Shown: positions 8,921 through 15,209 of the stretch, piece by piece | How positions within the stretch are numbered: position 1 is the stretch's first letter | How the letters are laid out: every line of letters starts with the position of its first letter | Sequence record: OR996328 | Direction: 5' to 3' (one strand) | DNA from: Escherichia phage Shy | DNA: 42,805 bases | Notes under the pieces: generated by a model | What the model was told of the DNA's origin: nothing | The model's database searches: none | What the model saw: only the letters and a program-made list of their open reading frames with translations | Made by a program: the position numbers and the translations under genes

Positions 8921-10450
8921 ATGGTCTGCGACGTTAACAAAATCGACAGCAATATTTCGGGCCTTTCGTTCGCCGAAGAAGAATGCTTGAAACAGCTTCC
9001 GGCTTCGCCCGTTTGGTACGGGCTGGAACCGAACAGCTATTCGGACTTCGGCGGCGAAGTTACGACCGTGGCACGCGCCCCGATTGACCCTTCGCGCCAG
9101 CGGAAGAAAGGCACCGTTACCGACTTGGACGCTTCGGGCGGTTTCAATACCGACGTAACGGCCGACAACATTACCCGGCTTATGCAAGGCTTTTGCTTTG
9201 CCGATGCCCGCCAGCAACCGCAAACCGCGCCGTTGAATGCGGCTAAAGTTTCGATGACCGGCGTAGACGGCGACGAAATCAAGTACACCGCCGCTTCTGG
9301 CTTGGGTATCTTCGCGGCCGGTGACTTGGTTGTCGCAAGCGGTTTCGCGGTGCCCACAAACAACGGCATGAAAAAGGTTAGCGACGCAATCGCAACCGCC
9401 GTTACCGTATGGGGCGCGTTGTCCGACGAAGGCGCGGCACCGAACGGCGCACTTACCCGCGTTGGTCACGAATTCGCATCGGGCGACGTTGCGTTGACCT
9501 ATGCGGCCGGTCTGCTGACCCTGACCGCGACGGCCGGGTCGTTCGCCTTTGGCCTGATTCCGGGTCAATGGGTGTTCATCGGCGGCGATGGCGCTGGCAC
9601 TTCGTTTGCCAACAACGTCGGTTACGCCCGCGTTGCGGCCATTTCGACCGACAACAAAACCGTTACGCTCGACAACGCCACTTGGACGCCTGTAACCGAA
9701 GCCGGAACCGGTATCACGCTGCAAGTATACTTCGGCACCGTCATTCGTAACGAAAAGTCGGCCAACCTGATTAAGCGCCGTTCGTACCAACTGGAACGCA
9801 CGCTAGGCCAAGATGCCGACGGTATGCAATCCGAATACCTTGTCGGTGCCGTCGCAAACGAATTCACCTTGAACATTCCGCAGGCCGACAAGCTGAACGC
9901 CGACGTTACCTTTGTAGCGTGCGACAACGAACAGCGTACCGGTGCGGTTGGCCCCAAGGCTGGTACGCGTGTTTCGGCGCTTGGTCAATCGGCGTACAAC
10001 ACTTCTTCGGACGTTTACCGTATCCGTATGTCGGTCAACAATTCGGCGAACCCGAATCCGACCCCGCTGTTCGGTTACATTTCCGAAGGTTCTATCGAAG
10101 TGAACAACAACATTACGCCGAACAAAGCGGTCGGCGTGTTGGGTGCGTTCGACACTTCGGCGGGCGACTTCGAAGTCGGCGGGTCTGTTACCGCTTACTT
10201 TACCACTGTTGCGGCAACCCAAGCGGTACGCAATAACGCCGACGTTGGTATCTACGCGATTCTTGCGGCAAACAATCGCGGCATGATTTACGACATTCCG
10301 TTGCTTTCGCTTGGCGGCGGTCGTATCAACGTCGAAAAAGACAACCCGATTACTGTTCCGTTGGATACCAACGGCGCAGAATCGAAATTCGGCCATACGC
10401 TGTTGGTTGAATTCTTCGAATACTTGCCAAACAAGGCAATGCCGCAGTAA
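8921..10450 (+). CDS. putative major tail (tube) protein
   Basis: 509 aa; sits directly upstream of the G/GT chaperone pair; followed by a strong terminator. Confidence 0.5.
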   Translation: MVCDVNKIDSNISGLSFAEEECLKQLPASPVWYGLEPNSYSDFGGEVTTVARAPIDPSRQRKKGTVTDLDASGGFNTDVTADNITRLMQGFCFADARQQPQTAPLNAAKVSMTGVDGDEIKYTAASGLGIFAAGDLVVASGFAVPTNNGMKKVSDAIATAVTVWGALSDEGAAPNGALTRVGHEFASGDVALTYAAGLLTLTATAGSFAFGLIPGQWVFIGGDGAGTSFANNVGYARVAAISTDNKTVTLDNATWTPVTEAGTGITLQVYFGTVIRNEKSANLIKRRSYQLERTLGQDADGMQSEYLVGAVANEFTLNIPQADKLNADVTFVACDNEQRTGAVGPKAGTRVSALGQSAYNTSSDVYRIRMSVNNSANPNPTPLFGYISEGSIEVNNNITPNKAVGVLGAFDTSAGDFEVGGSVTAYFTTVAATQAVRNNADVGIYAILAANNRGMIYDIPLLSLGGGRINVEKDNPITVPLDTNGAESKFGHTLLVEFFEYLPNKAMPQ

Positions 10451-10457
10451 ACTAAAT

Positions 10458-10485
10458 GGGCCGGTGCGATATCCGGCCCGTTTTT
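10458..10485 (+). terminator. rho-independent terminator after major tail gene
   Basis: GGGCCGG-8 nt loop-CCGGCCC followed by GTTTTT. Confidence 0.65.
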
Positions 10486-10515
10486 CTCCAACTTCCGAAA
10501 TAAGGATTTGAAATT

Positions 10516-10956
10516 ATGTCGCTTTCCAAACAGTTCGCTACCGATACCGCCAAAGAAGTCGAAGGCGTAGTTATCCAATTCGGCCAGAACGACGACGGTT
10601 CCGTTCCCGGCTTCCATATTTCCCGTATGTCGAAAGCGAATACGCGTTACACGCGTGCGCTTGAAGCGGCAACCCGTCCGTACCGTCGTCAAATCGAAAT
10701 GGGTACGCTGGCGAACGACGTTGCCGAACGCGTATTCATGGGCGTATTCGTCGATACCGTGTTGAAAGGTTGGGAAAACGTCCAACTTTCCGACGTAACC
10801 GGCAACGAAGAAGATACCGGCTTCGCGCCGTTCAACCGTGCGAATGCGCTGTCGCTGTTCGGCCGTTTGCCGGAACTGTACGACGACTTGCAGAACCAAG
10901 CGAAGTCGGCCGCAATGTTCAAGGAAGAAGCGCAGGAAGCCGAAGCAAAAAACTAA
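10516..10956 (+). CDS. tail assembly chaperone (G-like)
   Basis: 146 aa acidic protein upstream of tape measure; ends with an in-frame slippery heptamer immediately before the stop. Confidence 0.6.
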   Translation: MSLSKQFATDTAKEVEGVVIQFGQNDDGSVPGFHISRMSKANTRYTRALEAATRPYRRQIEMGTLANDVAERVFMGVFVDTVLKGWENVQLSDVTGNEEDTGFAPFNRANALSLFGRLPELYDDLQNQAKSAAMFKEEAQEAEAKN

Positions 10957-11321
10957 CCGAAGTTCTGTTGTATCTGTTGGAGTTAGGGCCGCACGAAAAG
11001 ACCATAGCACAACAGGCGTTCCGGTCGGGTGAACCGATGCCCGACCGGATAGCAAATGCACCAGAACTAGAATTAGGGTTACAACTGTATTTGCAAGCGT
11101 TCTTCGATTTAGATTCCGAACGTTCGCATTCGTTAGGATTAACGCCGATTAGTTGGTCGTCAATCATCGGATACGCAAGGGCTTTCGAATTCGACGAAGA
11201 ACAAACCGAATCACTGTTGTTTCATATTCGACGGATGGATACCGAACACTTAAAACGTTTGGAGTCAAAGCAACCCAAACAGTCGAAACAACCCGTAAAG
11301 GTTCCTAAACATGGCCGGTAA
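10516..11321 (+). CDS. tail assembly chaperone frameshift product (GT-like; 10516-10953 joined in -1 frame to 10953-11321)
   Basis: The -1 frame ORF (track 10770-11321) reads KKLTEVLL from the slippery site; no SD before its first Met; G/GT arrangement is conserved in long-tailed phages. Confidence 0.5.
10947..10953 (+). promoter_or_regulatory. -1 programmed ribosomal frameshift slippery site A_AAA_AAC
   Basis: Canonical X_XXY_YYZ heptamer in frame with chaperone codons GCA-AAA-AAC-TAA; the -1 frame is open from here to 11321. Confidence 0.6.
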
Positions 11322-11748
11322 TCTTTTAGACTTAGCCAATCGGCTAGAAAAGAAAAAGGCCGAAATTGAGACGGCCGCCAGCGAAGCGGCCGTTTTTGTT
11401 GCTGTTACCGCCGTCGCTGAACTGGCATATACGACGCCCGTTGATACGTCGAAGGCGCTGTCGTCTTGGGAAGTCACCTTAGACGCTCCGTCTTCTAATG
11501 TGGGCAAGGCGCATTATCCCGGCGAAAAAGGTTCGACGCGCAACGCATCGGCCGCCGAAACAATCGCGCAAGCGAAAGCTGTATTAGCGAATAAGAAGCC
11601 CGGACAAAAGATTTATATAACAAACAATCAACCGTATATCAAGCGATTGAACGACGGTTATTCGGCGCAACAATCGGCCGGATTTGTAGAACGCTGTTTA
11701 GCCAAAGTTCGCAAGGCCGTACAGCGGTATAAACTGAAACTTAAATAA
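11311..11748 (+). CDS. hypothetical tail-module protein
   Basis: 145 aa ORF between chaperone and tape measure; contains a TCTAATGTGGGCA motif copy. Confidence 0.4.
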   Translation: MAGNLLDLANRLEKKKAEIETAASEAAVFVAVTAVAELAYTTPVDTSKALSSWEVTLDAPSSNVGKAHYPGEKGSTRNASAAETIAQAKAVLANKKPGQKIYITNNQPYIKRLNDGYSAQQSAGFVERCLAKVRKAVQRYKLKLK

Positions 11749-11759
11749 AAGGCGGAATC

Positions 11760-14700
11760 ATGGCCGACGAACAAATCGTTATTGAAATTACGGACGGCGT
11801 AGCGGCGTCTATCCCGGCGAAGATTGACCGAATCGCCGCGTCGGCCCGCAACGCGCATACCGCAGTCGAAACGCTGAAACAACAACTTGCCATGCTGGAC
11901 GGTAAGGGGTTGCAATCGCTTTCGGCCGCAATGAACCAAGCGGCGTCGGCTTCGACCAAACTTGCACAAGCGCAACAGGCAGCCAATACCACGGCCGCGC
12001 AAGCCGCTATCTTGCAAAACCGCGTCGAACAGTCGGCCGCAAACGCCGCGAACGCGCAAGCCCGTTTGGCTACCGCTTCGACCAATACGGCGACGGCGCA
12101 ACAACGCTTGGCTACCGCAACCGCTAACACCGCTACCGCCGAAGCGAAGTTAGCGACCGAAACGGCTAAGACTTCGACCGCACAATCGAACAGTGCCGCC
12201 GCCGCGTCGCGTGCGGAACTGGCTTCTATTCGTCTGCAACAGGCGCAAAAGAAGTTGGAAGAACAGAACCAGAAAACGACTAATTCGTTTATGGACTTCG
12301 CAAAGCGTGCGCTTTCGATTGCCGCGATTACCGCCGCAACCGGTGCCCTGTTGAAGTACGCCGACAGTTATACCGCTTTGCAAAACAAATTGCAAAACGT
12401 TTCGTCGTCGCAAGCGCAAGTTAACGAACTTACCGACCGCCTGTACGAACTTGCGAACAAGACGCGTGCCGGGGTTGACGAAACCGCGACCGCATTTACG
12501 CGCTTTGACCGGTCGTTGAAGTTAATGGGTAAATCGCAAGAAGATACTTTGCGAATGACCGAAACCATTAACAAAGCGTTGGTCGTATCCGGTGCCACTT
12601 CGTCGGAAGCATCGTCGGCCCTGTTGCAGCTTTCGCAGGCGTTCAACTCCGGTAAGTTGCAAGGCGACGAATTCCGTTCCGTATCGGAAAACATGCCCGT
12701 CGTATTGGACGCCGTAGCCAAGGCGCTTAACAAACCGGTTGACCAAGTTAAAAAACTCGGTACGGAAGGCAAGATTACGTCGGAAGTTCTGTTTAAAGCG
12801 TTCCAGCTTATTCAACAGCAAATCGACGATACCTTCGCGAAAACGACGCCCACAATCGGGCAAGCGATGACCGTACTTAACAACCAAGTCGGCCAATTCG
12901 TCGGTAAGCTGGATAAAGCGACCGGCGTATCGTCGGCACTGGCGAAGGCGATTCTTTGGCTTGGTAACAATCTCGACCTGTTGACCGTGGCGCTTGTGGC
13001 CGTAGGCGCGGCCCTGCTGGTCGCGTTCGGGCCAGCCCTGCTATCCGCCCTTGGCGCAGCGACGACCGCCGTAATTGGCTTCACGGCGGCCCTAGCGGCC
13101 AACCCGATTGGCCTTATCGCGATTGCCATTACAACCGCTATCGCAGCCCTTACCGTATTCGGCGACAAGATTTCGGTTACTTCCGACGGTCTGGTTAACC
13201 TGCAAGACGTTGCGAAGTCGGTTCTTTCGATTGTCGGCGACGGGTTTAGCGCCGTTGGTGCCGAAATCCAATCGCTTTGGGGTAAGGCGATTGATTGGAT
13301 TAACGAAAAAACTAACGGTTGGGGTGAAAACTTCCGTTCGCTTGGCGATACTATTCTGTCGCTAGTTAAGGCGACCGTTAACGGTTATATCGGCGCTTGG
13401 GTTTCCGCATACAACGTCGTTAAAACCGTTTGGGATAACTTCCCGGCCCTTATGAAAGGGCTGTTTGCGCTTGTCGTGAACGCTGGCGCAACGGCTGTTG
13501 AAACGCTGGTGAATAGCTGGCAAATTGGTATTCGCGGCATTGCGTCGCTTGCCGAAGGTGTTGCCCCGGAACTGGTCGCCAAGTTGAACGGCGCACTTGA
13601 CAAAGCGAAAATCGAATTGCCGCGTATGCAAATCGAACAGGAAGCGAAAGACGCCGGTTCGGCTGTCGCACAAGCCGCCGTGTCGGGCTTCCAAACCGAT
13701 TACGTTGGCGGTATGACCGACGCCATTATGCAAGGTGCCCGCAAGATTTCGGAAGCCCGCCGCGCAGCGGAAGCCGAAGCGGCTAAGTCGAACCTTCGCG
13801 GTGCCGGTACGAACCAGCTTTCGGGCGACGACGGCAAAACGAAGAAAGCCAAGTTGACGCAAGAACAGAAAGATTACAACAAGGCGCTTAAAGAAGTTAC
13901 CGCACCTTTGCGCGAATATAACGCCGCAATGGCTGTCGCCAAGGCGCTTTATGACACTGGCGCAATTAGCCTTGAAAAATATAACGCATTGGTCGCCAAG
14001 GCGAAAGACGCATACGCCAGCGCAACCGACCCGCTGTATTCGTTCAACAAGGCGGCACAAGAACAATTCGACGTACTGTCGAAAGTCGGCCCGGCGATGG
14101 AAGCGGAACGAAACGTTATTCAGGCGCGAAACGCCGCATTGCAAGCGGGCTTGCCGTTTAGCGAAGCTATGGCCGAAAGCATCCGTAAGACGACCGTTGC
14201 ACTTGACGAAGCGCAAAAGAAATCGGACGTTCTTAACAAGATTTACAGCGAAACCAAGGGCGCACAAGCTGACTTGACGGCGCAACAACAGGCGTATAAT
14301 CAGGCGTTGGCGAACGGCGCAATTTCGGCGGAACAGTACGGCATTAAAATGCAACAACTGAACGTCGATGCCGCAAATCTTAAAATGCAAATGGGTACGG
14401 CCGGATTTAACGACGCAATTGTCGCCGGTATGGGCCAACTTGTTTCGAACTATCAAGGCGTGTTGCAAGGTCTGTCGGGCGCTTGGGGCAACTTCTTTAC
14501 CGGGTTCGTTGACGGATTCGCCAACAGCATCGGCCGCGCTATCGTGTACGGCGAAAACCTGCAAGATACGTTGTCGCAAGTTTCGAAGCAAATTCTTTCG
14601 GAACTTATCGGCGCACTTATCAAGGTCGGTATTCAATACGTCGTCAACCAAGCGTTAGCGCAAACCGCTATCACTGCGACGACCGCACAATCGACCGCAG

Positions 14701-15209
14701 CGGCGGCCACGACTACGGCGGCTTGGGCACCAGCGGCGGCCGTGACTTCGGCGGCATCGTTCGGCGGTGCGGCCGTGGCCGGTATCGCGGCGCTTGCCGT
14801 GTTGTTCGGTATGGTAATGGGCTTCGCGGCCAAGGGCTTTAAAACTGGTGGCTATACCGGCGACGTTGGTACGTCCGAAGTTGCGGGCGTGGTTCACGGT
14901 CAAGAATTCGTCGTTAATGCGGCGGCTACGCGCAAACACCGCGCAACGCTTGAAGCGATGAACAACGGCGGTTCGGTTGCCGCAGTGAACCAAAATAGCG
15001 ATAATGCCGGTAATGGTGGCGGCGGTGTTGTTATGGTCGCATTCGATATCGACAACAATATTACCGTACAGGGCGGTTCCGGCGACAGTTCCGCCGATTC
15101 GCTGGAAAAAGCGGCGACCGCAATTTCGCAGAAGACGCAAGCCGACATTATGGATAGTATCCGCATGGGCGGTACTTGGTCGAAAGTCATTAAACAGGCG
15201 GCAAACTAA
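11760..15209 (+). CDS. tail tape measure protein
   Basis: 1149 aa; Ala/Gln-rich coiled-coil N-terminus; central hydrophobic segments (LLTVALVAVGAALLVAFGPALL...); canonical position. Confidence 0.85.
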   Translation: MADEQIVIEITDGVAASIPAKIDRIAASARNAHTAVETLKQQLAMLDGKGLQSLSAAMNQAASASTKLAQAQQAANTTAAQAAILQNRVEQSAANAANAQARLATASTNTATAQQRLATATANTATAEAKLATETAKTSTAQSNSAAAASRAELASIRLQQAQKKLEEQNQKTTNSFMDFAKRALSIAAITAATGALLKYADSYTALQNKLQNVSSSQAQVNELTDRLYELANKTRAGVDETATAFTRFDRSLKLMGKSQEDTLRMTETINKALVVSGATSSEASSALLQLSQAFNSGKLQGDEFRSVSENMPVVLDAVAKALNKPVDQVKKLGTEGKITSEVLFKAFQLIQQQIDDTFAKTTPTIGQAMTVLNNQVGQFVGKLDKATGVSSALAKAILWLGNNLDLLTVALVAVGAALLVAFGPALLSALGAATTAVIGFTAALAANPIGLIAIAITTAIAALTVFGDKISVTSDGLVNLQDVAKSVLSIVGDGFSAVGAEIQSLWGKAIDWINEKTNGWGENFRSLGDTILSLVKATVNGYIGAWVSAYNVVKTVWDNFPALMKGLFALVVNAGATAVETLVNSWQIGIRGIASLAEGVAPELVAKLNGALDKAKIELPRMQIEQEAKDAGSAVAQAAVSGFQTDYVGGMTDAIMQGARKISEARRAAEAEAAKSNLRGAGTNQLSGDDGKTKKAKLTQEQKDYNKALKEVTAPLREYNAAMAVAKALYDTGAISLEKYNALVAKAKDAYASATDPLYSFNKAAQEQFDVLSKVGPAMEAERNVIQARNAALQAGLPFSEAMAESIRKTTVALDEAQKKSDVLNKIYSETKGAQADLTAQQQAYNQALANGAISAEQYGIKMQQLNVDAANLKMQMGTAGFNDAIVAGMGQLVSNYQGVLQGLSGAWGNFFTGFVDGFANSIGRAIVYGENLQDTLSQVSKQILSELIGALIKVGIQYVVNQALAQTAITATTAQSTAAAATTTAAWAPAAAVTSAASFGGAAVAGIAALAVLFGMVMGFAAKGFKTGGYTGDVGTSEVAGVVHGQEFVVNAAATRKHRATLEAMNNGGSVAAVNQNSDNAGNGGGGVVMVAFDIDNNITVQGGSGDSSADSLEKAATAISQKTQADIMDSIRMGGTWSKVIKQAAN

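Follow-up and report, generated by a model that had tools for sequence, protein, structure and literature searches.

A probable programmed -1 ribosomal frameshift at A_AAA_AAC in the tail assembly chaperone gene of Escherichia phage Shy

RESULTS AND DISCUSSION

Genes surrounding the chaperone locus

The window analyzed here is a stretch of 42,805 nucleotides of Escherichia phage Shy (OR996328), and all of the features described below lie on its plus strand. The locus is bounded upstream by the gene for the major tail (tube) protein (8921..10450; 509 aa), which matches Pfam PF18906 Phage_tube_2 (E = 3.6e-25) and phrog_290 (E = 1e-77) and whose homologues are labelled major tail or tail tube protein in the phages Loki, Halfdan, and TehO. 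It is bounded downstream by a gene for a tape measure protein of 1149 aa (11760..15209), which matches PF20155 TMP_3 (E = 3e-63) and phrog_3336 (E = 1e-234). A preliminary description of this DNA, made without database searches, had already called these two genes major tail protein and tape measure, and the Phage_tube_2 and TMP_3 matches bear out both names. The 266-position Phage_tube_2 profile is matched over residues 12-482 of the 509-aa tube protein, which must therefore contain large insertions; these are possibly decoration domains.

The interval between the tube protein gene and the next ORF holds a terminator-like hairpin (GGGCCGG/CCGGCCC) followed by a T-run (10458..10486; -19.7 kcal/mol), the stem of which was found by scanning. 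Terminators are annotated at the matching place in Loki and TehO. Such an element would cut the expression of the chaperone and tape measure genes relative to that of the tube protein.

Two overlapping ORFs follow, as in lambda-type systems. The zero-frame tail assembly chaperone ORF, here called G (10516..10956; 146 aa, 16.2 kDa), begins downstream of the Shine-Dalgarno (SD) sequence AAGGA (predicted pairing, -6.0 kcal/mol) and matches phrog_313 (E = 1.7e-29) and phrog_8233 (E = 3.7e-26), both of which are annotated "tail assembly chaperone." The extension in the -1 frame, here called T (10953..11321; 122 codons plus the stop), matches PF23812 Phage_TAC_18 (E = 1.4e-26; 92.9 bits against a cut-off of 27), phrog_3817 (E = 2.5e-36), and phrog_8233. 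Sequence families of tail chaperones thus cover both products. Within the phrog_8233 profile, G corresponds to positions 6-140 and the T extension to positions 141-256, and this colinearity means that one family profile runs straight through the proposed junction. The fusion, GT, consists of 10516..10953 joined to 10953..11321, with C10953 read twice, and comprises 268 aa (30.3 kDa). A Pfam search with G gave zero matches, and the fused alignment, used as a profile against the PDB, had no meaningful match (best E = 0.22).

Between T and the tape measure gene lies a further gene (11311..11748; 145 aa) for a tail completion or Neck1 (HK97 gp10-like) protein (phrog_169, E = 1.1e-33). The same gene occupies this place in the annotated relatives that we inspected, and the Loki paper likewise puts gp14 between T and the tape measure gene (PMC5313236). 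The gene order is therefore MTP-G-T-(tail completion)-TMP rather than the plain lambda order, the tail-completion insertion being the one deviation from a lambda-type arrangement in which the two overlapping ORFs lie between the major tail protein and tape measure genes. The tail-completion gene shares its first 11 nt with the end of T and has a weak SD (-3.4 kcal/mol); translational coupling of this gene to the few ribosomes that traverse T might therefore occur. A second terminator-like hairpin, of 11 pairs followed by TTTTTGTT, is present on the coding strand about 60 nt into this gene (11368-11406).

The slippery site at the end of G

Direct reading in the frame of ATG 10516 gives GCA AAA AAC TAA at 10945-10956. 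The heptamer A_AAA_AAC (10947-10953) has the X_XXY_YYZ phase, is the only in-phase heptamer of this pattern found in a scan of G, and lies within the overlap of the two ORFs. It is adjoined by the zero-frame stop TAA (10954-10956), possibly a "shifty stop." No stop interrupts the -1 frame between 10665 and a TAA at 11319-11321, so that 122 sense codons, or 123 codons including the stop, follow the shift. Both the canonical slippery site at the end of the ORF and the 123 open codons to 11321 had been pointed out in the preliminary description, and both are as it gave them.

Heptamers of this sequence are strongly depleted in this DNA. AAAAAAC occurs 3 times on the two strands of the 42.8-kb window, where dinucleotide shuffles give 27 +/- 5, and the remaining two copies (12750 and 13306), to judge from their coordinates, are inside the tape measure gene and outside the slippery phase. 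When the other ORFs were scanned (a set of 47 without G, which was scanned separately), 22 in-phase heptamers were found, and in no case (0/22) does the -1 frame stay open beyond 35 codons past the heptamer. An open -1 frame past the stop was discarded as evidence in itself: it is seen in 15 of the 47 ORFs and is commonplace because the next gene is often in that frame. The conjunction of the heptamer with the open -1 frame is confirmed and is no chance coincidence.

Conservation of the junction among related phages

The fused protein found 311 phage records by tblastn, with a query coverage of at least 80% in 292, and all of the records that cover both halves do so as separate frame pieces, down to 25% identity. 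We fetched loci in two sets (25 annotated or metagenomic, then 80 viral contigs) and compared 106 related loci, which represent 78-80 distinct junctions and in which the identity of G ranges from 100% down to ~26%. T is in the -1 frame in 78 of 78 distinct junction contexts, and an in-phase heptamer stands at the homologous position in every one of these, A_AAA_AAC in 61 and G_GGA_AAC in 17. The heptamer always ends in AAAC, and its first three bases alternate jointly between AAA and GGG, a switch that replaces Lys with Gly and retains the slippery pattern. The A-site codon is AAC in 80/80 contexts and never AAU or AAG, whereas AAU makes up 33% of Asn codons elsewhere.

Some of these junctions confine the position of the shift tightly. 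In 13 contexts, the -1 frame opens just 10 nt upstream of the G stop, and a shift is therefore possible solely on the heptamer. In the YuA-type phages, the heptamer lies 39 nt upstream of the stop, and the junction predicted there, ...GN/LWEVL... (the slash marks the frame change), is still homologous to all the others. In the alignment of the fusions, L147 is invariant and N146, V150, L151, and G158 are nearly so, and N146, L147, V150, and L151 are among the best-conserved residues of the fused alignment as a whole. Past the junction, third codon positions as read in the -1 frame are the most variable (0.62 versus 0.46 and 0.38). The 28 residues that precede the first Met of the -1 frame, among them L147, V150, L151, and G158, are conserved from the junction onward without any start codon.

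Taken together, these conservation results indicate that a -1 shift at precisely this heptamer has been under selection. Of the conserved G/GT arrangement that the preliminary description had proposed, the essential part holds, with chaperone families in both halves and T in the -1 frame in 78/78 junctions; the tail-completion gene at 11311-11748 had been overlooked.

Proposed course of the shift and competing explanations

The reading that best accommodates these observations is a lambda G/GT-type programmed -1 ribosomal frameshift at A_AAA_AAC that joins the two parts of a G/T chaperone. We consider this reading very probably correct, the slippage itself being deduced from sequence. Ribosomes would initiate at ATG 10516 and translate G, and the majority would stop at TAA 10954-10956 and release the 146-aa product. 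A few would slip back by one base while Lys-tRNA and Asn-tRNA occupy AAA and AAC; the tRNAs would re-pair with AAA and AAA, and these ribosomes would re-read C10953 as the first base of CUA (Leu) and go on in the -1 frame to 11321. The product would be the 268-aa G-T fusion with the junction ...EAEAKN/LTEVLLYLLELGP..., for which a tandem slip or a slip of the Asn-tRNA predicts the tryptic junction peptide NLTEVLLYLLELGPHEK. KK before LTEVLLYLLELGPHEK at the junction would instead point to a Lys-only slip or to transcriptional slippage. If lambda is a guide, the tape measure protein would be coated by G and by the G portion of GT and the T domain would recruit the tail tube protein, and neither G nor GT would be expected in the virion.

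T could instead be made separately by internal initiation in the -1 frame, from ATG 11037 (giving 94 aa) or from TTG 10968, and the frameshift would then be unneeded. A stand-alone T ORF is annotated in both Halfdan records, and ATG 11037 is preceded by GGGUGA (11027-11032), which has a predicted anti-SD pairing of -5.1 kcal/mol, where real genes here have -3.2 to -7.8; the statement in the preliminary description that the -1 ORF lacks a ribosome-binding site before its first Met is therefore incorrect. However, the annotated start of the stand-alone ORF varies among records, and the residue homologous to the Met at 11037 is M, L, I, or V in relatives. A -27 kcal/mol hairpin takes up GGGUGA, at least in part, in its stem and ATG 11037 in its loop and closing pair, and TTG 10968 has no SD (-0.5 kcal/mol). 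Initiation at ATG 11037 would moreover forgo the 28 conserved residues upstream of it, and internal initiation leaves the invariant in-phase heptamer unexplained. Given the nonconserved Met, the SD buried in a hairpin, and the loss of 28 conserved residues, internal initiation is very unlikely to be the main route to T; some independent synthesis of T from ATG 11037 is conceivable. We regard as more improbable still a transcriptional slippage in which RNA polymerase inserts an extra A at the A6 run (10947-10952) and so joins G and T, with the junction ...EAKK/LTEV.... Some IS elements and phages do use transcriptional slippage (PMC5009743), and the run is there to be slipped on. The 17 of 78 related junctions with G_GGA_AAC nevertheless have runs of only three and keep the X_XXY_YYZ phase, and this phase, which is invariant, matters for the re-pairing of tRNAs and not for slippage of the polymerase. 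Productive polymerase slippage usually wants runs of ~8-9 or more. What would mark such a site, a long run conserved in its length rather than in its phase, is not what is seen here, where the run is A6 in this phage and G3A3 in 17 contexts; it is this retention of phase in the relatives with no long run that makes transcriptional slippage so unlikely.

A variant of the main explanation is that a single P-site tRNA slips, either the Asn-tRNA with the stop in the A site or the Lys-tRNA before Asn-tRNA has arrived. Its appeal lies in the stop, which abuts the heptamer in 74/80 contexts and is kept there through an otherwise rare CUA codon (74% versus 7%), and "shifty stop" stimulation is an established concept, credited to Weiss et al. 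1987 where the review PMC5009743 takes it up. The first three bases of the heptamer are constrained too, however, with AAA or GGG matching the next two, as expected for two-tRNA slippage, and the YuA-type heptamer 39 nt before the stop indicates that the stop is not essential. We judge the variant unlikely, though with some real chance of being right.

For ribosomal frameshifting at A_AAA_AAC, the shift frequency is expected to be low, ~1% or a few percent, because AAC in the A site promotes little shifting in E. coli and no strong structure adjoins the heptamer. In IS1, A_AAA_AAC has been proven to work as a bacterial -1 site, for which a stimulator is not established (PMC4066793). In E. coli, it is far less shifty than A_AAA_AAG, and the re-pairing of AAC-decoding tRNA with AAA is disfavoured (PMC4066793, PMC5009743). 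A low ratio of GT to G would fit lambda, which needs roughly 30:1 G:GT (PMC5009743).

The abutting stop and structure near the site

The first -1 codon, which overlaps the stop, is CUA in 59 of 80 contexts, whereas CUA makes up 7% of Leu codons elsewhere in G and T. CUG takes this place in 15 cases and is followed by A in all 15, which yields UGA. These two patterns argue that the abutting stop itself is selected. A "shifty stop" effect would be the likeliest reason, and the abutting stop would be accounted for equally well if G had to end at that very codon. The stop is probably part of the signal, since slow termination would allow time for slipping.

Across the family, the RNA just past the shift tends to be structured. 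In 48-nt windows starting 0-9 nt past the shift, the mean z score against synonymous-codon permutations is -1.4 to -1.6, and 32-43% of the values are below -1.64. Structures of -8 kcal/mol or lower start 3-10 nt after the heptamer, where stimulators are canonically placed, in 56 of 91 relatives, where they share neither a common register nor covariation. In this phage, the corresponding windows have z = +0.8 and +0.1, that is, no excess structure, and its best near-site structure is one of -4.1 kcal/mol, against -18 in Loki, -19.5 in NP1, and -13.2 in Pavpe01. The near-site hairpin is carried by Loki, NP1, AMA1, and Pavpe01, among others, and has been lost in this phage through synonymous and near-synonymous changes.

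RNAalifold gave no consensus structure for 22 sequences over the 84 nt from the heptamer. A fixed-register hairpin derived from Pavpe01 was tried as a conserved stimulator and rejected, since it showed no covariation and was 60% paired versus 59% in shuffles. With neither covariation nor a common register, we make no claim of a conserved near-site stimulator.

An upstream SD-like stimulator was also rejected, as it is weak in the window (-4.3 kcal/mol, z = -0.8) and its enrichment in the family is weak (mean z = -0.57). The dnaX-type arrangement, with an SD-like element ~10 nt upstream and a stable stem-loop 5-8 nt downstream, is absent at this site, and an Rfam scan of 10400-11800 returned a chance tmRNA fragment alone (E = 0.9). 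Given the weak near-site structure and the unconvincing SD-like element, the frameshift signal in this phage appears to consist of the heptamer and the stop.

A distal hairpin within T

A stable hairpin with an 11-bp stem (11020-11030 paired with 11039-11049) lies within T at 11020..11049, 66 nt past the heptamer. Its predicted energy is -27.4 kcal/mol (z = -3.0 against synonymous-codon permutations), and the z profile of the family has a second peak at offsets 54-63, which matches its position. A hairpin is found at the homologous place in most relatives, with differing arm sequences; Loki has no strong hairpin there. In this distal region, the natural sequence folds better than its synonymous-codon permutations in 55% of 91 relatives.

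Explicit pair counting over 62 sequences found 64% of cells paired versus 56% in shuffles, a level that 0/500 shuffles reach, and slid registers gave 26-39% pairing. The covariation score over the same 62 sequences was 0.213 versus 0.117 in shuffles (again 0/500 reach it), and there are covarying pairs between third codon positions, such as CGG/GAC, CGA/GAU, and CGU/GAA. RNAalifold returned nothing for these 62 sequences, so that the signal is one seen through pair counting. Since kinship alone can beat shuffles without any structure, we take the covariation as suggestive of a hairpin that is conserved with compensatory changes.

At 66 nt from the heptamer, the hairpin is too distant to touch a ribosome standing on the slippery site. 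It might tune recoding, or it might serve the T region and the tail genes that follow as a protective or regulatory element; candidate roles of this kind might be the blocking of internal initiation, of Rho loading, or of RNase attack. That the family has a common design, in which an invariant X_XXA_AAC fused to a stop is combined with a covarying hairpin ~66 nt downstream in the rarely translated T, is an idea that we put forward as rather doubtful. The literature that we examined on tail-chaperone frameshift regions describes no comparable distal conserved structure.

Relatives and their annotation

A 2.9-kb query around the site is 98.3-98.4% identical to Escherichia phage Halfdan and its "Juelich variant" (genus Lokivirus) and 80.6% identical to Pseudomonas phage Pavpe01, and it has 60-80% identity to 227 further records, including the Septimatrevirus group and Acinetobacter phages. 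The fused G-T protein is 100% identical to its Halfdan counterpart. The two records MH362766 and PP954860, each ~98% identical to the window and with the same G-T proteins, have two widely differing bacteria, E. coli K-12 MG1655 and Pseudomonas taiwanensis, as their recorded hosts, and the Halfdan authors doubted that E. coli is the natural host.

The Halfdan records give T as a separate ORF, from TTG 10968 or ATG 11037, and have no joined CDS. MH362766 gives G the wrong name, "putative tail fiber protein," and lists T as a hypothetical protein, and in the other record G and T are given as two separate chaperones; a frameshift goes unmentioned in the Halfdan paper. The records of Loki, Erwinia phage AH03, and RcSimone-Hastad each include a joined CDS. 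A frameshift at AAAAAAC next to the stop was predicted for phage Loki by Turner et al. 2017 (PMC5313236), and the G/GT frameshift signal is thus already known for the genus, as a prediction in its type phage. The present finding is accordingly an ordinary one. Our literature search found no experimental support for GT in this phage or in members of the family.

The practical value lies in annotation. A joined CDS (10516..10953, 10953..11321) should replace the split calls of the Halfdan records, and the finding, which matches what is expected of a siphovirus tail module, settles the names of the neighbouring genes. Recoding specialists may find some small interest in a phage group, with Pseudomonas, Acinetobacter, Vibrio, Rhodobacter, and other hosts, that uses solely an AAC-ending heptamer, a poor shifter in E. 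coli, together with a near-constant abutting stop and a retained distal hairpin.

Comparison with known frameshift systems

The closest counterpart is gp12/gp13 of Acinetobacter phage Loki, the type species of Lokivirus, which is orthologous, with 65% identity over the fused protein. As in this phage, AAAAAAC stands directly before TAA and a tail-completion gene lies ahead of the tape measure gene. The frameshift is represented in Loki by a joined CDS and is described, as a prediction, in the accompanying paper (PMC5313236), whereas the Halfdan records are without it. Loki differs in having a stable hairpin (-18 kcal/mol) 8 nt past the heptamer, where this phage has -4.1 kcal/mol, and in that its -1 frame opens 10 nt before the stop rather than 289 nt before it.

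The heptamer of lambda is G_GGA_AAG. Lambda gpG/gpGT and the conserved chaperone frameshift of other phages with long tails (Levin et al. 1993; Xu, Hendrix and Duda 2004) resemble the arrangement described here: the major tail protein gene is followed by a pair of overlapping ORFs, and the first of these carries a -1 heptamer close to its end. The low-level fusion with a C-terminal T domain that lambda makes (PMC5009743) is predicted alike for this phage. In contrast to lambda, the family of this phage uses solely X_XXA_AAC with the stop abutting, a tail-completion gene separates T from the tape measure gene, and neither the lambda G nor the lambda T Pfam family is matched (G matches none, and T matches PF23812).

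Outside tail genes, IS1 insA/insB' has the identical heptamer A_AAA_AAC as a low-frequency -1 site (PMC4066793); the product there is a transposase rather than a chaperone, and there is no homology. E. coli dnaX (gamma/tau) resembles this phage in an A-rich heptamer preceded by GCA and in a -1 slip of the P-site Lys-tRNA. In dnaX, however, the heptamer A_AAA_AAG is flanked by an SD-like element on its upstream side and a stem-loop on its downstream side, whereas this phage has AAC in the A site, an SD-like element that is not convincing, and a downstream structure that is not strong. The outcomes are opposite as well, as the shift shortens the product in dnaX and would lengthen it here.
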